Of a stretch of DNA of 64,000 bases, positions 19,983 to 53,103 are shown piece by piece. The stretch's first letter is position 1. Every line of letters starts with the position of its first letter. The stretch comes from Escherichia coli. GTDB lineage: Bacteria > Pseudomonadota > Gammaproteobacteria > Enterobacterales > Enterobacteriaceae. The stretch lies in NCBI RefSeq assembly GCF_003334785.1, contig NZ_QOWV01000001.1. One strand, 5' to 3'. Below the pieces are notes generated by a model. That model did no database searches, had not been told where the DNA came from, and saw only the letters and a list, made by a program, of their open reading frames with translations. The position numbers and the translations under genes were made by a program.

Positions 19983-21053
19983 ATGACAACGTTTCATTCC
20001 TTAACAGTGGCAAAAGTCGAGTCGGAAACCCGTGATGCGGTGACCATTACCTTTGCGGTGCCCCAGCCTTTGCAGGAGGCGTATCGCTTTCGCCCCGGTC
20101 AACATTTGACCTTAAAAGCCAGCTTTGATGGTGAAGAATTACGCCGTTGTTACTCCATTTGCCGCAGCTATCTGCCTGGCGAAATTAGTGTGGCGGTGAA
20201 AGCCATTGAAGGCGGACGTTTCTCCCGCTATGCCCGCGAACACATCCGCCAGGGTATGACGCTGGAGGTCATGGTGCCGCAGGGGCATTTCGGCTATCAG
20301 CCGCAGGCCGAACGCCAGGGGCGCTATCTGGCAATTGCAGCAGGATCAGGTATTACGCCAATGCTGGCGATTATCGCCACCACTTTACAAACCGAGCCTG
20401 AAAGTCAGTTCACCCTGATCTACGGTAACCGTACCAGCCAGAGCATGATGTTTCGCCAGGCACTGGCAGACCTGAAAGACAAATATCCTCAGCGTTTACA
20501 GTTGTTGTGCATTTTCAGTCAGGAAACCCTCGACAGCGATCTGCTTCACGGGCGTATTGACGGTGAAAAATTACAGTCACTTGGGGCCTCGCTCATTAAT
20601 TTTCGTCTTTATGATGAGGCATTTATTTGTGGTCCGGCGGCGATGATGGATGACGCGGAAACCGCCTTAAAAGCACTGGGAATGCCAGATAAAACCATTC
20701 ATCTGGAGCGGTTTAATACGCCTGGCACGCGCGTCAAACGTAGCGTTAACGTGCAAAGTGACGGACAAAAAGTGACTGTACGTCAGGATGGGCGGGATCG
20801 GGAAATCGTGCTTAATGCCGACGATGAAAGCATTCTCGATGCGGCATTGCGCCAGGGGGCGGATCTGCCCTATGCCTGCAAAGGCGGCGTCTGTGCGACC
20901 TGCAAATGCAAAGTGCTGCGTGGCAAAGTGGCGATGGAAACCAATTACAGTCTGGAACCGGATGAACTGGCCGCAGGTTATGTGTTGAGTTGCCAGGCAC
21001 TGCCGCTGACCAGCGATGTGGTGGTTGACTTTGACGCGAAGGGGATGGCATGA
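19983..21053 (+). CDS. paaE: Phenylacetyl-CoA epoxidase reductase subunit (FNR-like flavin domain + plant-type 2Fe-2S ferredoxin), 356 aa
   Basis: MTTFHSLTVAKVES...; C-terminal 2Fe-2S motif CKGGVCATCKCKV; track start 19773 runs into paaD and is rejected. Confidence 0.9.
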   Translation: MTTFHSLTVAKVESETRDAVTITFAVPQPLQEAYRFRPGQHLTLKASFDGEELRRCYSICRSYLPGEISVAVKAIEGGRFSRYAREHIRQGMTLEVMVPQGHFGYQPQAERQGRYLAIAAGSGITPMLAIIATTLQTEPESQFTLIYGNRTSQSMMFRQALADLKDKYPQRLQLLCIFSQETLDSDLLHGRIDGEKLQSLGASLINFRLYDEAFICGPAAMMDDAETALKALGMPDKTIHLERFNTPGTRVKRSVNVQSDGQKVTVRQDGRDREIVLNADDESILDAALRQGADLPYACKGGVCATCKCKVLRGKVAMETNYSLEPDELAAGYVLSCQALPLTSDVVVDFDAKGMA

Positions 21054-21817
21054 GCGAACTGATCGTCAGCCGTCAGCAACGAGTATTGTTGCTGACCCTT
21101 AACCGTCCCGCCGCACGTAATGCGCTAAATAATGCCCTGCTGATGCAACTGGTAAATGAACTGGAAGCTGCGGCTACCGATACCAGCATTTCGGTCTGTG
21201 TGATTACCGGTAATGCACGCTTTTTTGCCGCTGGGGCCGATCTCAACGAAATGGCAGAAAAAGATCTCGCGGCCACCTTAAACGATACACGTCCGCAGCT
21301 ATGGGCGCGATTGCAGGCCTTTAATAAACCACTTATCGCAGCCGTCAATGGTTACGCGCTTGGGGCGGGTTGCGAACTGGCATTGTTGTGCGATGTGGTG
21401 GTTGCCGGAGAGAACGCGCGTTTTGGGTTGCCGGAAATCACTCTCGGCATCATGCCTGGCGCAGGCGGAACGCAACGTTTAATCCGTAGTGTCGGTAAAT
21501 CGTTAGCCAGCAAAATGGTGCTGAGCGGAGAAAGTATCACCGCTCAGCAAGCACAGCAGGCCGGGCTGGTTAGCGACGTCTTCCCCAGCGATTTAACCCT
21601 CGAATACGCCTTACAGCTGGCATCGAAAATGGCACGTCACTCGCCGCTGGCCTTACAAGCGGCAAAGCAAGCGCTGCGCCAGTCGCAGGAAGTGGCTTTG
21701 CAAGCCGGACTTGCCCAGGAGCGACAGTTATTCACCTTGCTGGCGGCAACAGAAGATCGTCATGAAGGCATCTCCGCTTTCTTACAAAAACGCACGCCCG
21801 ACTTTAAAGGACGCTAA
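21050..21817 (+). CDS. paaF: 2,3-dehydroadipyl-CoA hydratase (enoyl-CoA hydratase/crotonase family), 255 aa
   Basis: Crotonase fold; ATGA overlap with paaE stop. Confidence 0.9.
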   Translation: MSELIVSRQQRVLLLTLNRPAARNALNNALLMQLVNELEAAATDTSISVCVITGNARFFAAGADLNEMAEKDLAATLNDTRPQLWARLQAFNKPLIAAVNGYALGAGCELALLCDVVVAGENARFGLPEITLGIMPGAGGTQRLIRSVGKSLASKMVLSGESITAQQAQQAGLVSDVFPSDLTLEYALQLASKMARHSPLALQAAKQALRQSQEVALQAGLAQERQLFTLLAATEDRHEGISAFLQKRTPDFKGR

Positions 21818-28614: not shown

Positions 28615-28647
28615 CAGATGTAAAATTATTTTGTCCCTTTAATTATA

Positions 28648-28685
28648 AAGCAGAGTTATGTTTAAGCTCTGCTTTATTTATTTGA
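28648..28685 (+). terminator. Rho-independent terminator after paaY
   Basis: AAAGCAGAG-N10-CTCTGCTTT stem followed by TATTTATTT. Confidence 0.55.
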
Positions 28686-28944
28686 GTATTAATTCATACC
28701 GTTTTTTCATCATATAATTATTTATAATGAGAATGTGGTTTTAATTTGTAATTTATATTATATACACAATTTATATATTTCATGGTCTTTTTTTATTCAC
28801 CTGAATTATAATTGTGAATTATAGGAAAGTATGTTTGATTAGATAATAATCTACTGGCAATATTGGATGTCTTCTATGTTTTAAATAACTAATTGGTCGG
28901 GTTAGTGCATCCGGCTTTCTTTATATTCGCCAGAAGGATTTATT

Positions 28945-31900
28945 ATGCAAAGGAAAACTCTATTGTCGGCCTGTATTGCATTAGCTCTGAGTGGTCAGGG
29001 TTGGGCGGCAGATATCACAGAGGTAGAAACCACCACAGGTGAAAAGAAAAATACCAATGTGACTTGTCCGGCAGACCCAGGAAAACTCAGTCCGGAAGAG
29101 CTTAAACGCTTACCCTCTGAATGCTCTCCTTTAGTCGAACAAAACCTGATGCCATGGCTTTCCACAGGCGCTGCTGCGTTAATCACGGCCTTAGCCGTAG
29201 TGGAACTAAACGACGATGATGATCATCATCATCGCAACAATTCTCCACTCCCACCGACACCCCCTGATGATGAATCAGACGACACTCCAGTTCCCCCAAC
29301 TCCTGGCGGAGATGAGATAATACCGGACGATCCGGATGATACGCCTACACCTCCCAAACCGGTTTCGTTTAATAATGACGTTATTCTCGATAAAACAGAA
29401 AAAACGTTAACTATTCGCGATTCAGTTTTTACTTATACCGAGAATGCTGACGGGACTATATCTCTGCAAGATAGCAATGGTCGTAAGGCAACGATTAATC
29501 TTTGGCAGATTGATGAAGCGAATAACACTGTTGCCCTTGAAGGGGTGAGCGCAGATGGCGCAACGAAGTGGCAATATAATCACAACGGTGAGCTTGTTAT
29601 TACGGGTGATAATGCCACAGTAAACAACAATGGCAAAACCACCGTTGACGGTAAAGATTCCACCGGTACGGAAATCAACGGTAATAACGGGAAAGTGATT
29701 CAGGACGGCGATCTGGATGTCAGCGGCGGCGGTCACGGTATTGATATCACCGGTGACAGCGCGACGGTGGATAACAAGGGCACCATGACCGTCACCGATC
29801 CGGAGTCCATGGGTATCCAGATCGACGGTGACAAGGCCATCGTCAATAACGAAGGCGAGAGCACCATCACCAACGGTGGCACCGGCACCCAGATTAATGG
29901 TGATGACGCCACGGCAAACAACAACGGCAAAACCACCGTTGACGGCAAGGATTCCACCGGTACGGAAATCAACGGTAATAACGGAAAAGTTATTCAGGAC
30001 GGCGATCTGGATGTCAGCGGCGGCGGTCACGGTATTGATATCACCGGCGACAGCGCAACGGTGGATAACAAGGGCACCATGACCGTCACCGATCCGGAGT
30101 CCATCGGTATCCAGATTGACGGCGACCAGGCCATCGTCAATAACGAAGGCGAGAGCACTATCACCAATGGCGGCACCGGCACTCAGATCAACGGTAACGA
30201 CGCCACCGCGAATAACAGTGGAAAAACCACTGTTGATGGAAAAGATTCCACGGGTACCAAAATCGCGGGCAATATCGGCATTGTAAATCTGGATGGTAGC
30301 CTGACTGTTACAGGCGGTGCGCATGGTGTTGAGAACATTGGTGACAACGGCACGGTTAACAACAAAGGAGATATTGTTGTTTCCGATACTGGATCGATTG
30401 GCGTGCTCATCAACGGTGAGGGGGCAACAGTATCCAATACGGGTGATGTTAACGTTAGCAATGAAGCGACAGGGTTCAGCATCACAACCAACAGTGGGAA
30501 GGTTTCGCTGGCAGGCAGTATGCAGGTTGGCGATTTCTCGACCGGGGTAGATCTTAATGGCAACAATAACAGCGTGACGCTGGCGGCAAAAGATCTAAAA
30601 GTGGTCGGGCAGAAAGCGACGGGCATAAACGTTTCTGGCGATGCGAATACAGTGAATATCACTGGTAACGTTCTGGTTGATAAGGATAAAACCGCAGACA
30701 ATGCGGCGGAATATTTCTTCGATCCATCCGTGGGTATCAACGTTTACGGCAGTGATAATAACGTGACGCTGGATGGAAAGTTAACTGTTGTATCAGACAG
30801 TGAGGTTACTTCTCGTCAGAGTAATTTATTTGATGGCAGCGCAGAGAAAACGTCAGGTCTGGTTGTGATTGGCGATGGCAATACCGTTAATATGAATGGT
30901 GGACTTGAACTGATTGGAGAGAAAAACGCGCTTGCAGATGGGTCGCAGGTTACTTCCTTGCGCACAGGATATAGTTATACCAGCGTTATTGTCGTTAGTG
31001 GTGAGTCGTCGGTATATCTGAATGGAGATACGACAATCAGCGGAGAATTCCCTCTGGGGTTTGCCGGGGTTATTCGGGTACAGGATAAAGCTTTGCTGGA
31101 AATTGGCAGTGGCGCTACGCTAACAATGCAGGATATTGACAGTTTTGAACATCATGGGACAAGAACCCCAGAACTTACTTATGCTGATTCCGGTGCGAAA
31201 ATTGTTAATAAAGGTACTGTTGAAATTCAGAATTTAGGTTTTGCTTTTGTTACTGGTGAAAATACAACAGGTATAAATAGTGGCACGATCTCGTTATTAC
31301 AAAATGGTAAAGATCCGGCACCGTCTCCCATTGTTTTACTGGCTACTAACGGAGGGAGCGCCACTAATGCAGGTACGATCACAGGTAAAGTGACGGAACA
31401 ACATAGCGTATTTAACAAGTATTCAACGGGCACATCGAATTCATTTATTTTTAATAACGATGTCAGTAGCATAACAGGGTTAGTCGCTCAATCGAATAGC
31501 ACAATTATCAATACTGACAGCGGCATCATTGATTTGTATGGTCGTGGTAGTGTCGGCATGCTTGCTATAGCAGATTCAACAGCAGAAAATCAGGGTAAAA
31601 TTACACTGGATTCTATGTGGGTAGATGCAAATGACACTACCGCAATGCGAGATATAGCTAGCAACAGCGCCATTGACTTCGGTACAGGTGTGGGAGTTGG
31701 TACTGATAGTTATAGTGGTGCAGGGAAAAATGCAACAGCAATTAACCAATTGGGCGGTGTTATAACTATTTATAACGCCGGCGCAGGTATGGCGGCCTAT
31801 GGCGCCAGCAATACAGTTATTAACCAGGGGACGATTAACCTCGAAAAAAATGGTAATTATGACGATAGTCTGGCAGCAAATACTCTGGTAGGGATGGCTG

Positions 31901-34713
31901 TTTATGAGCATGGTACTGCTATCAACGACCAGACGGGTGTTATCAATATCAATGTTGGTACTGGTCAGGCGTTTTATAACGATGGCACAGGAACAATTGT
32001 TAACTATGGTACAATCTGCACTTTCGGCGTGTGCCAATCGGGGAATGAGTACAATAATACAGATGATTTCACCTCACTGATCTATACCGGTGGCGATACG
32101 ATTACACGAAGCGGAGAAACTGTAACGCTAAATAAATCTGCTGCTGTGACTGATAAGCTGGCTGGGAATGTTGTTAATAGCGGAACGCTTTCCGGTGATC
32201 AAATTACGGTATCAAGCGGTCTTCTGGAAAATACCAGCGGTGGCATCATCAATAACTTAGTAAAACTTGACAAGGGTGCCGTCATTAAAAATGCCGGGGT
32301 GATGACGAATAACGTCGATGTTAGCGGTGGAATCCTCAATAATGCCGGAGAAATGACTGCGCAAATTACCATGAATGCTGGTGCTGATAGTTCGTTAGTG
32401 AACAACACCGGAACCATCAATAAAATCGTGCAGAACGCGGGGGTATTCAATAATAGTGGCAGTGTAACAGGGCGGATGATGTCGGCTGGCGGGGTCTTTA
32501 ATAATCAAACTGACGGGGCGATTATGAGAGGTGCTGCGCTGACAGGTACTGCAGTGGCAAATAACGAAGGAACCTGGAACCTCGGAAGTAGTAGTGAGGG
32601 TAACAACACCGGGATGCTGGAAGTTAATAATAATTCAGCTTTCAATAACCGCGGCGAGTTTATTCTTGATAACGACAAGAATGCTGTGCACATCAACCAG
32701 TCCGGTACGCTTTATAATACCGGTCACATGAACATCAGTAATTCTTCCCACAACGGAGCCGTTAATATGTGGGGCGGAAATGGTCGTTTTATCAATGACG
32801 GAACGATTGATGTTTCTGCGAAGTCACTGGTAGTCAGCGCTAATAATGCCGGCGATCAGAATGCCTTCTTCTGGAACCAGGATAACGGGGTCATCAACTT
32901 CGATCACGACAGCGCCAGTGCCGTGAAAGTCACCCACAGCAACTTTATTGCCCAGAATGACGGCATCATGAACATCAGCGGCACCGGTGCTGTGGCTATG
33001 GAAGGTGATAAGAACGCGCAGCTGGTTAACAATGGCACCATCAACCTCGGTACCGCAGGCACTACTGACACGGGTATGATCGGTATGCAACTCGATGCCA
33101 ACGCCACGGCGGATGCGGTAATCGAAAACAACGGCACCATCAATATCTTCGCCAATGACTCGTTTGCATTTAGCGTACTGGGTACAGTAGGTCATGTGGT
33201 TAACAACGGCACGGTGGTGATTGCCGATGGGGTTACGGGTTCTGGACTGATCAAGCAGGGCGACAGCATCAATGTTGAAGGTATGAACGGTAACAACGGT
33301 AATAGCAGCGAAGTGCATTATGGCGACTATACGTTGCCGGATGTGCCGAAGCCCAATACGGTTAGTGTAACGTCGGGAAGTGATGAGGCTGGTGGCAGCA
33401 TGAACAACCTCAACGGCTATGTCGTCGGTACCAACGTTAACGGCAGCGCCGGGAAGCTGAAGGTTAACAATGCCAGCATGAACGGCGTGGAGATTAACAC
33501 GGGCTTTACCGCTGGTACGGCAGACACCACTGTGAGTTTTGATAACGTAGTGGAAGGTAGCAACCTGACCGACGCTGACGCCATCACCTCAACGTCCGTG
33601 GTATGGACTGCCAAAGGCAGCACCGATGCCAGCGGTAACGTTGACGTCACCATGAGCAAAAATGCCTACACCGATGTGGCAACAGATGCCTCGGTGAATG
33701 ACATCGCGAAAGCACTGGATGCGGGTTACACCAACAACGAACTGTTTACCAGCCTGAACGTCGGCACGACTGCTGAACTGAACAGTGCTCTGAAACAGGT
33801 CAGCGGTAGCCAGGCGACCACGGTATTCCGCGAAGCGCGCGTGTTAAGCAACCGCTTTAGTATGCTGGCAGATGCCGCGCCGAAAGTGGGTAACGGTCTG
33901 GCGTTCAACGTTGTCGCGAAAGGCGATCCGCGTGCCGAGTTAGGTAATAATACCGAATACGACATGCTGGCATTGCGTAAAACTATCGACCTGAGCGAAA
34001 GCCAGACGATGAGTCTGGAGTACGGTATCGCTCGTCTCGATGGTGATGGTGCGCAGAAAGCGGGTGATAATGGCGTTACAGGCGGTTATAGCCAGTTTTT
34101 TGGCCTGAAACATCAGATGTCGTTCGATAACGGCATGAACTGGAATAACGCCTTGCGTTACGACGTTCACAACCTTGACAGCAGCCGCTCGATTGCATTT
34201 GGCAACACGAACAAAACGGCTGATACCGACGTGAAACAGCAGTACCTGGAGTTCCGCAGCGAAGGGGCGAAGACTTTCGAACCGAGCGAAGGACTGAAGG
34301 TTACGCCATATGCGGGTGTAAAACTGCGTCACACACTGGAAGGTGGCTATCAGGAGCGCAATGCCGGAGACTTTAACCTGAATATGAACAGTGGCAGCGA
34401 AACGGCGGTGGACAGCATCGTCGGGCTGAAACTGGACTACGCAGGTAAAGACGGCTGGAGCGCTAGCGCTACGCTGGAAGGCGGGCCGAACCTGAGCTAC
34501 GCGAAGAGCCAGCGTACGGCAAGCCTGGCAGGCGCAGGCAGTCAGCACTTTAACGTCGATGACGGTCAGAAGGGCGGCGGCATCAATAGCCTGACAAGCG
34601 TCGGCGTGAAGTACAGCAGCAAAGAAAGTTCGCTGAATCTGGATGCGTACAACTGGAAAGAGGATGGCATCAGCGATAAAGGCGTGATGCTGAACTTCAA
34701 GAAAACGTTCTAA
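28945..34713 (+). CDS. ydbA: Giant autotransporter (type Va secretion) with Gly/Asn/Thr-rich beta-helical passenger and C-terminal beta-barrel, 1922 aa; appears intact
   Basis: Single uninterrupted 5.8-kb ORF; N-terminal signal-like segment MQRKTLLSACIALALSGQGWA; Pro/Thr/Asp-rich linker; C-terminal approx 280 aa with alternating amphipathic strands ending ...GVMLNFKKTF (terminal aromatic, typical of OM beta-barrels). Gene symbol by synteny with the E. coli ydbA locus. Confidence 0.85.
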   Translation: MQRKTLLSACIALALSGQGWAADITEVETTTGEKKNTNVTCPADPGKLSPEELKRLPSECSPLVEQNLMPWLSTGAAALITALAVVELNDDDDHHHRNNSPLPPTPPDDESDDTPVPPTPGGDEIIPDDPDDTPTPPKPVSFNNDVILDKTEKTLTIRDSVFTYTENADGTISLQDSNGRKATINLWQIDEANNTVALEGVSADGATKWQYNHNGELVITGDNATVNNNGKTTVDGKDSTGTEINGNNGKVIQDGDLDVSGGGHGIDITGDSATVDNKGTMTVTDPESMGIQIDGDKAIVNNEGESTITNGGTGTQINGDDATANNNGKTTVDGKDSTGTEINGNNGKVIQDGDLDVSGGGHGIDITGDSATVDNKGTMTVTDPESIGIQIDGDQAIVNNEGESTITNGGTGTQINGNDATANNSGKTTVDGKDSTGTKIAGNIGIVNLDGSLTVTGGAHGVENIGDNGTVNNKGDIVVSDTGSIGVLINGEGATVSNTGDVNVSNEATGFSITTNSGKVSLAGSMQVGDFSTGVDLNGNNNSVTLAAKDLKVVGQKATGINVSGDANTVNITGNVLVDKDKTADNAAEYFFDPSVGINVYGSDNNVTLDGKLTVVSDSEVTSRQSNLFDGSAEKTSGLVVIGDGNTVNMNGGLELIGEKNALADGSQVTSLRTGYSYTSVIVVSGESSVYLNGDTTISGEFPLGFAGVIRVQDKALLEIGSGATLTMQDIDSFEHHGTRTPELTYADSGAKIVNKGTVEIQNLGFAFVTGENTTGINSGTISLLQNGKDPAPSPIVLLATNGGSATNAGTITGKVTEQHSVFNKYSTGTSNSFIFNNDVSSITGLVAQSNSTIINTDSGIIDLYGRGSVGMLAIADSTAENQGKITLDSMWVDANDTTAMRDIASNSAIDFGTGVGVGTDSYSGAGKNATAINQLGGVITIYNAGAGMAAYGASNTVINQGTINLEKNGNYDDSLAANTLVGMAVYEHGTAINDQTGVININVGTGQAFYNDGTGTIVNYGTICTFGVCQSGNEYNNTDDFTSLIYTGGDTITRSGETVTLNKSAAVTDKLAGNVVNSGTLSGDQITVSSGLLENTSGGIINNLVKLDKGAVIKNAGVMTNNVDVSGGILNNAGEMTAQITMNAGADSSLVNNTGTINKIVQNAGVFNNSGSVTGRMMSAGGVFNNQTDGAIMRGAALTGTAVANNEGTWNLGSSSEGNNTGMLEVNNNSAFNNRGEFILDNDKNAVHINQSGTLYNTGHMNISNSSHNGAVNMWGGNGRFINDGTIDVSAKSLVVSANNAGDQNAFFWNQDNGVINFDHDSASAVKVTHSNFIAQNDGIMNISGTGAVAMEGDKNAQLVNNGTINLGTAGTTDTGMIGMQLDANATADAVIENNGTINIFANDSFAFSVLGTVGHVVNNGTVVIADGVTGSGLIKQGDSINVEGMNGNNGNSSEVHYGDYTLPDVPKPNTVSVTSGSDEAGGSMNNLNGYVVGTNVNGSAGKLKVNNASMNGVEINTGFTAGTADTTVSFDNVVEGSNLTDADAITSTSVVWTAKGSTDASGNVDVTMSKNAYTDVATDASVNDIAKALDAGYTNNELFTSLNVGTTAELNSALKQVSGSQATTVFREARVLSNRFSMLADAAPKVGNGLAFNVVAKGDPRAELGNNTEYDMLALRKTIDLSESQTMSLEYGIARLDGDGAQKAGDNGVTGGYSQFFGLKHQMSFDNGMNWNNALRYDVHNLDSSRSIAFGNTNKTADTDVKQQYLEFRSEGAKTFEPSEGLKVTPYAGVKLRHTLEGGYQERNAGDFNLNMNSGSETAVDSIVGLKLDYAGKDGWSASATLEGGPNLSYAKSQRTASLAGAGSQHFNVDDGQKGGGINSLTSVGVKYSSKESSLNLDAYNWKEDGISDKGVMLNFKKTF
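29617..30260 (+). repeat. In-frame tandem repeat inside ydbA: two full 294-bp (98-aa) units plus a diverging partial third
   Basis: Unit beginning ...NNGKTTVDGKDSTGTEINGNNGKVIQDGDLDVSGGGHGIDITGDSATVDNKGTMTVTDPES(M/I)GIQIDGD... recurs with period 294 bp (e.g. GGCAAAACC at 29632 and 29926); copies differ at roughly 20 mostly synonymous positions by eye. Confidence 0.85.
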
Positions 34714-34732: not shown

Positions 34733-34768
34733 AAACCGCAACGCTGATACAGGTTGCGGTTTTTTTAT
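34733..34768 (+). terminator. Rho-independent terminator after ydbA
   Basis: AACCGCAACGCTGATACAGGTTGCGGTTTTTTTATT: stem plus T7 run. Confidence 0.7.
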
Positions 34769-35781: not shown

Positions 35782-35843
35782 CGAATATACAAAAGGGAAA
35801 GATGCATTTCCCTTTTTTTCTTTTTTAATGGCATGGAGTGCAT

Positions 35844-38150
35844 ATGTTTAAGGCCAGGAATTGCGGCTGGATACGTTTACTGCCCCTGTTTATGCTGAGT
35901 CTACCAGTACAGGCGGAACTTCGATGTGTTGCAAATGCAGTTGATATTGAATCATTTTTTTCTGCGGCTACCGCTGAAGATAAACAACAAGTTGAACAAG
36001 CTATCAACAGTAGCGTGAATCTTGTCCCCTTCGGTTTATCTGCATCGAACTGGAAAGTGCATCGTGGCGATTTAGTGGTAGAAGGTAATATAGAGAGTAA
36101 TCAAAAATTGATTGTTCTTGGGAATTTGACAGTCAAAGGTAATATTTCCACTTTCTCTCTTTCTAATCCATGGGTTATTCTCGGTAACGTGACGGCAACG
36201 AATATAGTTGCGGATTCACCACTGTTAATTACCGGTTCGATAAATGCAAGTGGACTGGTATTTATCGACTCATATTACGATAATCCGTCTACGATTAAGG
36301 GGAGTATTAATGCGCGTGGGATATTTATCAATGACATAATTGCACCTGTTGTTGCGTCTTCGACAAATAGTGAATTCATGGTCCGTGCGAGTGACAAACA
36401 TGACACTGAAAATGTCAAAAAAGCGCTGATGATAATAAATCCTGATGCATATTATTGGGGGCTAATTAATGATGAAGATGCTCTGAAAGAAATTTTTAAG
36501 CGAAGCAATATTCGCATGGCAGGGAATGTCTGTAATCAGATGAAAAAAGAAGCGCTGTTTCGCCCTAAGCCTTCTCCTGAGTTAGTGCAAGAATTGCAAA
36601 TGCTGGATGAAGGCAAAGTTGCTGCATTTGAAGGACGAGACATTGCGACATTTGATCTTGCCGTAATGCGAACTCTCCCAAGGCTTAAAGGAATTTCAGC
36701 TAACCTACGCAAACAACTTATTAATAGCAATGATGAACAAACGATTGAAAGTATGGCGAGATATATGCCTGACAATGAGATTCTGGAGTTGACCGATCAG
36801 CAATTGGGTTACCAGCCTGTTGTTCTGGGGTTGCTCGACCGTGAACCGCTCTCTGTCGAAATAATGACGCGAATGAGTCGTCTACCTGATGGTGTCGGTC
36901 CGTTGAATCTTGCGCTACGTGAAAATCTCCCTCTGGATATCGTCATGACTCTGGCGAAAAGAGATTGGGATATGATCATTCAGGAGCTTTATAAAGATGC
37001 GTGGTTATTGCCTGAATCCATTATTGATGGCTATATCCGCAGTGATGATTCCTCTATTCGTCAGGTCGGTGCTGGAGGACAACTCACCTACAATCAGGCA
37101 ATGCAGTTGGCGAACGATTCATCAAACAATGTTGTCACAAGCTTAGCGTTCAAGCTGGCAGAGATGAAACACCATGGTCAATTGTTGCGGATGACGCCAC
37201 AAGAGAGTGACAAAGTTGCAGGCTATTTATACCAAAAATTCGAGAATGACGATGATCTAATACGTGTGTTATTTTTAGCATTGCCAGATAACTTACAGTT
37301 TAATTTTGTTAAAAGGATGGAGAAAAAATCCCCGGCCTACTTTTGCTGTCGGGATATGCAGGTAATTCACTCTGACGCTGCTTTACAACGGTTATTGACA
37401 CGTTTCAACGATCCTGAAGGGTGGAGTAATCTGGCGAAAAATCAGTATCTGAGCACGTCGATGAAACAAAAAATTTGGCAACGTGCTTTATCGCATCGGA
37501 AAAATAATCCGAAAGCAGATTCAGATGCATATGAAACCAGCGCTGATATGATTTTGTCTGAGCTGATTAGCCACGGCGAAGTTGATGACCAGATGCTATT
37601 AAATGCCACCGCCCTGATACGTTCGGACGACTGGGACTTTTTAGAGAGTGCATTAATTAGTTGGGATAATTTACCCGCTGTTGTTCTCAAGGAATTACAG
37701 CAAAACACGCCACGCAATGATATTTGGGCGAAGTTTTTTCTGAGGCAGGAAAACAGTTCCCGTGCGCAGGTTGACGAAGCGTTACGTGTTTATTATGCAC
37801 TAGACCCCGATGCGTTAGCACAACTGGATGTACTGGCAAAACAACCGGATCGTATATGGTGGAGTACACTGGCGAAAAGCAATCTCACATTTTTCAAGTT
37901 CGGCGCACTTAACAACCGCCACACACCGCCTGCAGTACTGGCGGCAGAAATTGATCCCGAGTGGTGGATTGTGGCGATGAATAATCCCCGTTTTCCAGTT
38001 GATGTATTAAAGGCGAGGCTGAAACGTGATCCTTTGCTGGCGTTAGAGCTTGTTAACCCTGAACTGGATTTAGTCCGCCAGCTGGCGCTTAACGGTAAGA
38101 CGCGCGCAATACGGGAACAAGCGATGAGAAAACTTGATGAGTTGTATTGA
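35844..38150 (+). CDS. ydbD: Large secreted/periplasmic protein of unknown function YdbD, about 768 aa
   Basis: Signal peptide MFKARNCGWIRLLPLFMLSLPVQA; AT-rich coding sequence relative to neighbours (by eye); ATG at 35844 chosen over track 35838. Confidence 0.8.
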   Translation: MFKARNCGWIRLLPLFMLSLPVQAELRCVANAVDIESFFSAATAEDKQQVEQAINSSVNLVPFGLSASNWKVHRGDLVVEGNIESNQKLIVLGNLTVKGNISTFSLSNPWVILGNVTATNIVADSPLLITGSINASGLVFIDSYYDNPSTIKGSINARGIFINDIIAPVVASSTNSEFMVRASDKHDTENVKKALMIINPDAYYWGLINDEDALKEIFKRSNIRMAGNVCNQMKKEALFRPKPSPELVQELQMLDEGKVAAFEGRDIATFDLAVMRTLPRLKGISANLRKQLINSNDEQTIESMARYMPDNEILELTDQQLGYQPVVLGLLDREPLSVEIMTRMSRLPDGVGPLNLALRENLPLDIVMTLAKRDWDMIIQELYKDAWLLPESIIDGYIRSDDSSIRQVGAGGQLTYNQAMQLANDSSNNVVTSLAFKLAEMKHHGQLLRMTPQESDKVAGYLYQKFENDDDLIRVLFLALPDNLQFNFVKRMEKKSPAYFCCRDMQVIHSDAALQRLLTRFNDPEGWSNLAKNQYLSTSMKQKIWQRALSHRKNNPKADSDAYETSADMILSELISHGEVDDQMLLNATALIRSDDWDFLESALISWDNLPAVVLKELQQNTPRNDIWAKFFLRQENSSRAQVDEALRVYYALDPDALAQLDVLAKQPDRIWWSTLAKSNLTFFKFGALNNRHTPPAVLAAEIDPEWWIVAMNNPRFPVDVLKARLKRDPLLALELVNPELDLVRQLALNGKTRAIREQAMRKLDELY

Positions 38151-52142: not shown

Positions 52143-52206
52143 AAGAAAACGCCTGTACTAAAACCGACCCGTGGTACAGGCGAAGAATACGGGTCTACAT
52201 CGGAAG
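52143..52206 (-). ncRNA. rydC: RydC small RNA (Hfq-binding pseudoknot sRNA; regulates cfa and other targets)
   Basis: Minus-strand sequence CTTCCGATGTAGACCCGTATTCTTCGCCTGTACCACGGGTCGGTTTTAGTACAGGCGTTTTCTT matches my recollection of the 64-nt RydC; lies immediately downstream of cybB. Confidence 0.75.
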
Positions 52207-52621: not shown

Positions 52622-52818
<197 letters not shown>

Positions 52819-52829
<11 letters not shown>

Positions 52830-52875
52830 TCGTTGGCCTCGGTTGATAGAAATATCGGTCGGGGCCTTCGTCTTT
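52819..52875 (+). ncRNA. sokB: SokB antisense RNA (antitoxin) overlapping the mokB translation initiation region; boundaries approximate
   Basis: Inferred from hok/sok architecture, in which Sok is antisense to the mok start; coordinates placed relative to the mokB start from memory, not independently verifiable here. Confidence 0.4.
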
Positions 52876-53103
52876 CTGATTCCCGGTTAGCCTGAAAACA
52901 GAAAGTCTCAGGCACCCGCAGGCATCCTATGAGGTTTCCTTAGGGACGAAAATAATCACTTCACGAAATTGCGTGCTGTTTTCCAGAATTTTTCGTCATT
53001 CGGGTTAGCCAGTTTAGCCATTCGTTACTCTCTTCATTCCAATAGCATTAATTTTCTATGCAATAATTGTTGTAAAAATGTGACGCAAAGAGGTTTTTGG
53101 TCA

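Follow-up and report, generated by a model that had tools for sequence, protein, structure and literature searches.

In a 64,000-nucleotide stretch of an Escherichia coli genome (contig NZ_QOWV01000001.1 of assembly GCF_003334785.1, hereafter the window) the gene ydbA is present as an intact, K-12-type allele. In MG1655 ydbA is an autotransporter pseudogene, and full-length copies are found in ~42% of phylogroup A strains (PMC4951805). We consider it very probable that the window copy is an intact and monocistronic ydbA, that its product is a BigA/YdbA-family autotransporter of the classical type (Va), and that the passenger contains units of four solenoid rungs whose number varies by crossover. 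The gene, the domains of its family, the pseudogene state in K-12, and the intact copies in other strains are already on record. What is added here is the exact pre-insertion K-12 allele and the gain and loss of four-rung modules by crossover, including apparent events in K-12 laboratory strains.

The open reading frame (ORF) of ydbA in the window has 1922 codons, an ATG start, and zero internal stops, and an AAGGA ribosome-binding site lies ~7 nt 5' of the ATG. The 5769-nt ORF was compared by megablast with 5,426 complete E. coli genomes and was matched at 100.0% in the genomes of strains P13-6, DLI.6n, and SW070917. Because these complete genomes were assembled independently, the ORF is not a one-off read artefact. 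The P13-6 copy is annotated as intact (WP_001573416.1, 'BigA/YdbA N-terminal beta-barrel domain-containing protein') in the gene order paaX-paaY-ydbA-pdxI-ydbD, where pdxI is ydbC. The position between paaY and pdxI and the identity to the K-12 ydbA fragments identify the gene as the E. coli ydbA orthologue. A preliminary description of this DNA had reported a single uninterrupted ORF of 1922 codons with a signal-like N-terminus, a DDDDHHH stretch, a Pro/Thr/Asp linker, a Gly/Asn/Thr-rich passenger, and a terminal Phe. The uninterrupted frame was borne out by the ORF reading and by the three identical genomes, and all of the listed features are present in the translation. Hidden frameshifts, which the same description had named as a possible flaw, are countered by the finding of the same open frame in independently assembled genomes.

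The comparison with K-12 determines which allele is present. In the K-12 derivatives J53, CETR2G40, and MC1061 the gene is in two pseudogene pieces that are split by the insertion sequences (IS) IS2 and IS30, in agreement with the earlier statement that ydbA is broken by IS elements in K-12. When the fragments were aligned to the window, as had been proposed, gene positions 1-2224 equalled the MC1061 5' fragment and positions 2272-5769 equalled the K-12 3' fragment, both with zero mismatches (100% identity). The K-12 IS2 and IS30 are located at gene positions 2224 and 2272, and the window holds the empty target of each (Table 1). Since both K-12-lineage fragments match without a mismatch, the window allele is, by this comparison, the K-12 allele in its pre-insertion form, i.e., the exact uninterrupted K-12-type allele minus IS2 and IS30. 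The two share the locus and also the upstream region, in which 330 of the 330 intergenic positions are identical to MC1061. In addition to the two IS elements, they differ in the repeat array described below, as MG1655-type K-12 has three repeat units whereas the window has two. The K-12 pieces are named ydbA_1 and ydbA_2 (b1401 and b1405). A sigma-54 binding sequence, CCGGTACGGAAATTGCT, was reported within K-12 ydbA_1 (site IS17; PMC4591121). It maps to positions 3065-3081 of the K-12 locus L007, in a K-12-specific patch of the third unit (type t05, see below), and is absent from window positions 29605-30486. For studies of YdbA function, the window allele could be cloned as a naturally unbroken version of the gene that is a pseudogene in K-12.

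The C-terminal region of YdbA has the features of a type Va autotransporter. The Pfam Autotransporter domain (PF03797) was matched at amino acids (aa) 1696-1892 with E = 7.2e-19. An AlphaFold2 (AF2) model of the last 483 aa, calculated with 27 homologues from Escherichia, Salmonella, Citrobacter, Trabulsiella, Chimaeribacter, Budvicia, Nissabacter, and others, reached a predicted local distance difference test (pLDDT) score of 83. It contains a small beta-sandwich, a helical region that closes with a long helix, and ~12 long strands that are mostly above 90 pLDDT. The top Foldseek matches of this model, with probability 1.0, are AaaA, EstA, and NalP (target-normalised template modelling score 0.69-0.70) together with EspP, BrkA, and Hbp. 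The predicted 12-stranded barrel with a helical linker agrees with solved translocators of the type Va fold, and the helix at aa 1626-1644 is taken to be the linker inside the barrel pore, a placement suggested by the NalP and EspP matches. YdbA ends in GVMLNFKKTF, and the terminal F, the C-terminal aromatic residue that serves such barrels as the beta-signal for the beta-barrel assembly machinery (BAM), is nearly invariant in the 28-sequence alignment.

Family membership is indicated by two further domains, as BigA_N (AF2 pLDDT ~85-92) follows a Pro-rich spacer and BigA_beta (AF2 strands at pLDDT 82-94) precedes the barrel. The NCBIfam model auto_BigA (NF033178) gives YdbA 1075.9 bits, and because this is far under the curated cut-off of 3400 bits, YdbA is a relative of BigA and not BigA itself. 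On these domain matches and predicted folds YdbA can be classed as a classical (type Va) monomeric autotransporter of the BigA/YdbA family. Salmonella enterica BigA, which is named 'surface-exposed virulence protein', shares with YdbA the signal peptide, the Cys pair, the hydrophobic segment, the Asp/His cluster, the Pro-rich spacer, BigA_N, the predicted solenoid, BigA_beta, and the NalP-type barrel. The C-terminal 483 aa of YdbA are 72-78% identical to Salmonella BigA-type proteins. Both genes have in-frame repeats of variable length, in the spacer of bigA (STTR3) and in the solenoid of ydbA (294 bp). Salmonella bigA is found at a different locus than ydbA, and E. coli has a separate BigA-like paralogue (proteins P0024 and P0133). 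A study by Celik et al. grouped the BigA barrel with NalP and not with AIDA-I, and described the passenger as 'AIDA-I-like' (PMC3419190); the C-terminal fold matches of YdbA agree with this NalP grouping. Neither the AIDA nor the pertactin passenger domain was detected in YdbA by a Pfam scan. AIDA-I, Ag43, and TibA of E. coli are type Va monomers that adhere or aggregate through a repetitive, beta-helical passenger, and YdbA is predicted to be built likewise. The rungs of YdbA are 24-25 aa long and form a four-rung super-repeat, whereas the AIDA-I rung is ~19 aa. YdbA also differs from AIDA-I in that its barrel belongs to the NalP group and in that it has an additional N-terminal module.

The AF2 model of the N-terminal 340 aa, calculated with 18 homologues, shows, over aa 140-340 (pLDDT 85-98), a small beta domain and then a series of three-stranded rungs; in aa 221-340 each 24-25-aa rung has three short strands at pLDDT 90-98. 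A hidden Markov model (HMM) of eight rungs tiles aa 221-538 as 13 rungs that alternate between 25 and 24 residues, with weak matches to aa 1433. The passenger is composed of 14.8% G, 12.2% N, and 10.8% T, and C1025 and C1030 make up a closely spaced pair within it. The weak Foldseek matches of the solenoid model include polygalacturonase, pectin lyase, and pentapeptide-repeat solenoids.

The repeat array lies within this predicted solenoid. Tandem Repeats Finder placed it at 29605-30264 with a period of 294, 2.2 copies, 90% matches, no indels, and a score of 1082, which is far above chance. The repeat is in frame since 294 is 3 x 98, and according to the rung HMM each 98-aa unit is exactly four solenoid rungs. 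The two full units in the window (U1 and U2) are 92.9% identical, with differences at 21 of 294 nt that amount to 16 synonymous and 4 non-synonymous codons. The resulting non-synonymous and synonymous divergences (dN = 0.018, dS = 0.31) have a ratio of ~0.06, indicating that the protein sequence of the unit is constrained. Between intact ydbA alleles dN/dS is 0.07-0.17, a range that leaves out the TUM11352 comparison, which was misaligned by indels. These ratios indicate that both units, and the gene as a whole, have been under purifying selection at the protein level. The preliminary description had placed two 98-aa units and a diverging third at 29617-30260, which is the same array with the phase shifted by a few bases. 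Its proposal of an old duplication under protein-level constraint held up for the constraint. A single old duplication is too simple a reading, since recombination repeatedly shuffles units among arrays and the divergence between units consequently does not date one event. An ORF of 300 codons lies antisense to the array (29422-30324, minus strand). As a gene this candidate was rejected, as its only NCBIfam match is FlgG at 15 bits versus a cut-off of 253, which is at chance level, and it is probably a by-product of the codon composition of the repeat.

The number of units varies widely between strains. A megablast search with one unit detected 1-14 units per genome, with a median of 3-4, in ~2,390 of the 5,426 genomes. 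The ydbA coding sequence (CDS) is 5475 nt in TST3, 5769 nt in the window type, 6063 nt in PEC1009, and 7239 nt in ETEC6, so that the steps are multiples of 294; the CDSs of more divergent alleles are 5022, 5856, 8316, and 8604 nt. Unit types were assigned by exact sequence. The array is t01-t02 in the window, t01-t04-t05 in K-12 and PEC1009, t01-t04-t02 in strain 1409, t01-t05 in the J53 hybrid assembly, and a single t03 in TST3. Longer arrays were found in ETEC6 (t09-t10-t11-t11-t12-t04-t05) and FG31-1 (t09-t10-t11-t11-t13-t12-t02). Type t02 is identical to t04 over positions 1-216 and to t05 over positions 94-294, and t03 is identical to t01 over positions 1-149 and to t02 over positions 94-294. 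By sequence, t02 and t03 are hybrids of the kind expected from crossover between neighbouring units. The earlier view of the repeat as a substrate for copy-number variation is thus confirmed in its unit counts, its 294-nt length steps, and its hybrid units; an invariant repeat number, which would have spoken against it, was not what the strain comparison gave. The unit-by-unit reconstruction is a confirmation of that prediction rather than a surprise.

The window array is one unit step from the three-unit arrays of K-12 and strain 1409 and also from the one-unit array of TST3, and parsimony favours a path from three units (K-12 type) to two (window) to one (TST3). It is an uncommon type, since a match of at least 99% to t02 was found in only 19 of the 5,426 genomes. 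A unique derivation of the second window unit from K-12 units 2 and 3 was considered and is weakened by the finding that t02 is also the last unit of arrays with 3, 4, and 7 units. For the same reason the history of the array is better described as a network of exchanges than as a single old duplication. In MC1061 (L020 4047-6278) the K-12 IS2 and IS30 are kept, the array is t01-t02, and the 5' fragment is base-for-base the window sequence. Because MC1061 keeps both IS elements and yet has t01-t02, it is indicated that the K-12 lineage, once it had acquired the IS elements, underwent a one-unit loss that created t02. In J53-p1-pV-hybrid-1 (L002 3001-5232) the IS2 and IS30 are kept as well and the array is t01-t05. 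The two-unit arrays of MC1061 and J53 are either recent one-unit deletions in laboratory lineages or collapsed assembly repeats.

Arrays of 1, 2, 3, and 7 units are all in frame, which is not the behaviour of a phase-variable contingency locus. The array changes length and not the on/off state, because the 294-bp unit keeps the frame. In the divergent alleles (77-88% identical) of 23AR0806 (L010) and Nissle 1917 (L013) the repeats are spaced at 441 bp (six rungs) and 294 bp, and by sequence the length of the super-repeat differs between allele groups. Large in-frame passenger repeats whose number varies between strains and complicates assembly are also present in E. coli UpaH and Rickettsia rOmpA. 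Both are type Va passengers like YdbA that belong to other families and have other repeat units; in ydbA the crossover products could be followed from one unit to the next, apparently even within a laboratory lineage. In the databases, proteins that are labelled 'partial', have 236-382 aa, and end within the repeat array number in the hundreds (P0002-P0013). Draft genomes will under-report intact ydbA since short-read assemblies routinely break in the array, which is a known weak point for such assembly and a possible typing marker.

A working model for YdbA can be proposed from these features. Judged by inspection of the sequence, a Sec signal peptide would bring the protein to the periplasm. 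The last ~250 residues are predicted to build an outer-membrane barrel of 12 strands whose pore holds a helical linker, and this barrel would export the N-terminal passenger. By analogy with other autotransporters, the barrel would be inserted by BAM, and the passenger would thread out C-terminus first and fold outside the cell as a stalk. In the type Va secretion order the passenger N-terminus ends farthest from the cell. The passenger is predicted to be a long three-faced beta-solenoid capped by BigA_N, as modelled over aa 140-340 and extrapolated beyond, and the far end of the stalk would bear the Pro-rich spacer and a conserved module with a Cys pair and a hydrophobic segment. Homologous recombination or replication slippage between neighbouring units that are 92-96% identical may add or remove whole four-rung modules. 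Such four-rung steps would disturb neither the reading frame nor the solenoid register, and at ~0.48 nm per rung each unit should change the stalk length by ~2 nm. The passenger is most likely a surface adhesin or aggregation factor, by analogy to autotransporters with a beta-solenoid passenger.

The N-terminal module (aa 41-139) is the sole part of the protein that might repay experiments. The signal peptide was called by sequence inspection and by its conservation in homologues; it has the positively charged start MQRK, a hydrophobic core, and a GWA|AD junction with small residues at -3 and -1. A lipoprotein was considered, as LSAC at aa 7-10 resembles a lipobox, and was rejected because other family members do not conserve this Cys and it is too near the N-terminus for a hydrophobic core. 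Nineteen family members with 27-82% identity show no variation at C41, P42, L48, L56, C60, and G75. In the AF2 model aa 41-60 form short helices at only ~60 pLDDT and aa 68-88 are below 50 pLDDT, and no confident AF2 structure was obtained for aa 1-138. The segment at aa 68-88 holds the only 19-residue windows in YdbA with a Kyte-Doolittle mean of at least 1.4, with a peak of 1.78 at start position 68, and its value across the family ranges from 1.26 to 2.08. In homologues the equivalent of the Pro-rich spacer is built of variable-number PPDDGG(D/N)xT repeats. In Salmonella bigA the signal peptide is separated from the remainder of the chain by a region that holds the marker STTR3, used in multiple-locus variable-number tandem repeat analysis (MLVA/VNTR typing; PMC5183578), and this region corresponds to the Pro-rich spacer of YdbA.

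The family is visible through a full HMMER search, as a first word-based homologue search returned E. coli fragments only. The full search found the N-terminal region in 64 representative clusters, in nearly all of which it starts proteins of 1,000-2,000 aa, and the module is common to YdbA and the E. coli BigA-like paralogue. The part between the signal peptide and BigA_N is not covered by a model in the Pfam version used. It could represent a functional tip of a kind new to type Va proteins, for instance a hydrophobic 'hook' that is flexibly tethered and either inserts into membranes or depends on metal, or alternatively an element for envelope retention or quality control; we regard this proposal as speculative and rather improbable. 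After export the module would sit at the far end of a stalk of ~25 nm, and if the tip reading is true, the number of solenoid units would tune the reach of the tip.

Several observations weigh against the reading of YdbA as an intact, exported adhesin with crossover-variable units. No significant PDB fold match was obtained for the N-terminal solenoid model (best Foldseek E = 0.065), so the solenoid fold is read from the AF2 strand pattern. The whole YdbA protein had no PDB sequence match at E <= 0.01, which is why the two ends were modelled, and the models cover aa 1-340 and 1440-1922. Passengers, which have to cross two membranes, do not usually carry so hydrophobic a stretch (Kyte-Doolittle mean 1.78) close behind the signal peptide. 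The direction of the copy-number steps is set by parsimony and arrays with 3, 4, and 7 units likewise terminate in t02, and the two-unit arrays of MC1061 and J53 could be assembly-collapsed repeats. The gene is often lost, by IS2 and IS30 in K-12, IS3 in MLI108K2, IS2 and IS1 in 510016, and ISKpn26 in NMBU-W12E19; it is split into two CDSs in O157:H7 and frameshifted in Nissle and FG31-1. Because of these losses, selection for ydbA is conditional at best. A search of the literature returned no functional study (expression, secretion, adhesion) of YdbA or Salmonella BigA, and BigA is listed in a 2026 preprint as a candidate adhesin only.

The frequent losses raise the question of whether ydbA in the window is intact yet cryptic, that is, effectively silent, drifting to loss, open by chance, and with no adhesin role in the source strain. 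We find this unlikely. Independent disruptions are frequent across E. coli, at least 80% of the window allele is found in one place in only 987 of the 5,426 genomes, and full-length copies occur in the ~42% of phylogroup A strains mentioned above. Silence is also favoured by the low GC content of the upstream region (25%), whose counterpart in K-12 figures among the 'promoter islands' in an H-NS-related section (PMC3661553), and by the K-12 transcript, which rose only in an rpoZ mutant (PMC5811629). On the other side, dN/dS is 0.06 between units and 0.07-0.17 between intact alleles, so that the protein has been under purifying selection during most of its history, and conservation of the N-terminal module and the barrel extends across Enterobacterales. 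While expression in culture is probably low, E. coli autotransporters are normally silent in laboratory culture and function is not thereby lost. A different concern is that the two-unit array is an artefact of a collapsed repeat and that the gene in fact contains at least three units, like that of K-12. Short-read assemblies do break in the array, as the hundreds of partial proteins of 236-382 aa attest, and J53 assemblies differ in having 2 or 3 units. We consider a collapse in the window highly improbable, given that t01-t02 is found in at least 10 independently assembled complete genomes from varied hosts and countries, that the flanks are perfectly collinear, and that the hybrid unit is structured exactly as a real crossover predicts; even if true, it would alter the unit count and not the identity of the gene.

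It is also conceivable that the passenger is not primarily an adhesin and has a membrane-active tip, in which the hydrophobic Gly/Ala segment on its Pro-rich tether inserts into a target membrane. This would be loosely similar to VacA, the Helicobacter autotransporter toxin with an N-terminal hydrophobic GxxxG region, although YdbA has no sequence similarity to VacA. The conservation of the module in 64 representative clusters with its six invariant residues, the uniqueness of its hydrophobic windows in 1922 aa, and the established secretion order that places the N-terminus of a type Va passenger farthest from the cell are consistent with such a tip. The pLDDT below 50 for the hydrophobic segment gives it no structural support, hydrophobic patches would equally suit self-association or folding, and the remaining passenger resembles an ordinary adhesin-type solenoid; we judge this explanation to be very unlikely.

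The flanks suggest that ydbA is a transcription unit of its own. The intergenic region between paaY and ydbA has a GC content of 25.2% versus 49.8% for the whole window. A promoter scan found sigma-70-like sites about as often as in shuffled sequence (11 versus 10.6); one weak site of this kind lies in the intergenic region at 28752-28779 and is no better than chance. The promoter was left unassigned because the count equals the shuffled level. The terminator-like hairpin past the stop codon was missed by a consensus scan, since its 10-nt loop exceeds 8 nt. Since an AT-rich region precedes it and a terminator of its own follows it, ydbA looks monocistronic. The small ORF between paaY and ydbA, which we take to be ynbG of K-12, is annotated in all of the related genomes that were fetched, and its translation (MKYINCVYNINYKLKPHSHYK) was checked. 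The coordinates of all features are given in Table 1.

Table 1. Features of ydbA and its flanking regions in the window
Feature	Position	Strand	Basis or remarks
paaY-ydbA intergenic region, AT-rich, presumed ydbA promoter/regulatory region	28615..28944	+	330 bp, 25.2% GC
paaY terminator hairpin	28645-28677		inside intergenic region
21-codon small ORF MKYINCVYNINYKLKPHSHYK between paaY and ydbA	28718..28783	-	RefSeq WP_010723099.1
Intact ydbA CDS	28945..34713	+	1922 aa plus stop
Sec-type signal peptide, aa 1-21, MQRKTLLSACIALALSGQGWA then AD	28945..29007	+	inspection; conserved across family
Conserved Cys-x18-Cys segment, aa 41-60, CPADPGKLSPEELKRLPSEC	29065..29124	+	family alignment
Conserved hydrophobic Gly/Ala-rich segment, aa 68-88, LMPWLSTGAAALITALAVVEL	29146..29208	+	Kyte-Doolittle; conservation
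Asp/His cluster NDDDDHHHR (aa 89-97) and Pro/Asp/Thr-rich spacer (aa 98-139)	29209..29361	+	
BigA_N small beta domain, aa 140-220, caps solenoid (predicted)	29362..29604	+	Pfam PF25784, E = 8e-33, model 1-80/80
Repeat unit 1 (U1), type t01, 98 aa, four rungs of 25+24+25+24 aa	29605..29898	+	equals K-12 unit 1
Repeat unit 2 (U2), type t02	29899..30192	+	equals K-12 unit 2 over 1-216 and K-12 unit 3 over 94-294
Diverged third unit (U3), same four-rung pattern	30193..30486	+	~61% nt identity to U1/U2
Rest of passenger	30487..33264	+	one more recognisable rung to aa 538; increasingly degenerate Gly/Asn/Thr solenoid-like rungs to ~aa 1440
Empty K-12 IS2 target AACCC	31164-31168	+	alignment breakpoints versus K-12 loci L002, L007
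Empty K-12 IS30 target ACT	31216-31218	+	alignment breakpoints versus K-12 loci L002, L007
BigA_beta sandwich, aa 1491-1574, passenger/translocator junction	33415..33666	+	Pfam PF25783, E = 2.4e-25, full model length
Predicted long alpha-helix, aa 1626-1644	33820..33876	+	AF2 model residues 187-205, pLDDT ~82-88
Predicted C-terminal outer-membrane beta-barrel translocator, aa ~1670-1922	33952..34710	+	Pfam PF03797, AF2, Foldseek
Intrinsic terminator-like hairpin	34734..34768	+	AACCGCAAC, 10-nt loop, GTTGCGGTT, then seven T; ~20 nt past stop

Many RefSeq/PGAP records call the YdbA autotransporter 'EntS/YbdA MFS transporter' (e.g., L010 492-8807; proteins P0007-P0011 and P0013). Features of the major facilitator superfamily (MFS) are absent from the YdbA protein, and the misnamed clusters hold hundreds of member sequences. 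The label looks like a mix-up of the names YdbA and YbdA and is an error that needs correction; past correct annotation, the finding matters little.

Over its whole 64 kb, the window shares 99.96-99.98% identity with E. coli O141:H4 strain P13-6. Window positions 20428-21299 (872 bases) are missing from P13-6, in which paaE and paaF are annotated as truncated pseudogenes; this deletion is not in the window. The gene 3' of ydbA, ydbD (35838-38150, plus strand, 770 aa), carries the annotation 'DUF2773 domain-containing bactofilin' in related genomes and would be an unusually large protein of the bactofilin type. Rfam matches above the gathering score were found for MicC (671-791, plus strand), RydC (52143-52206, minus strand), and the sok antitoxin RNA (52766-52917, minus strand), and the sok match adjoins the site that hokB occupies in the annotation of the closely related P13-6.

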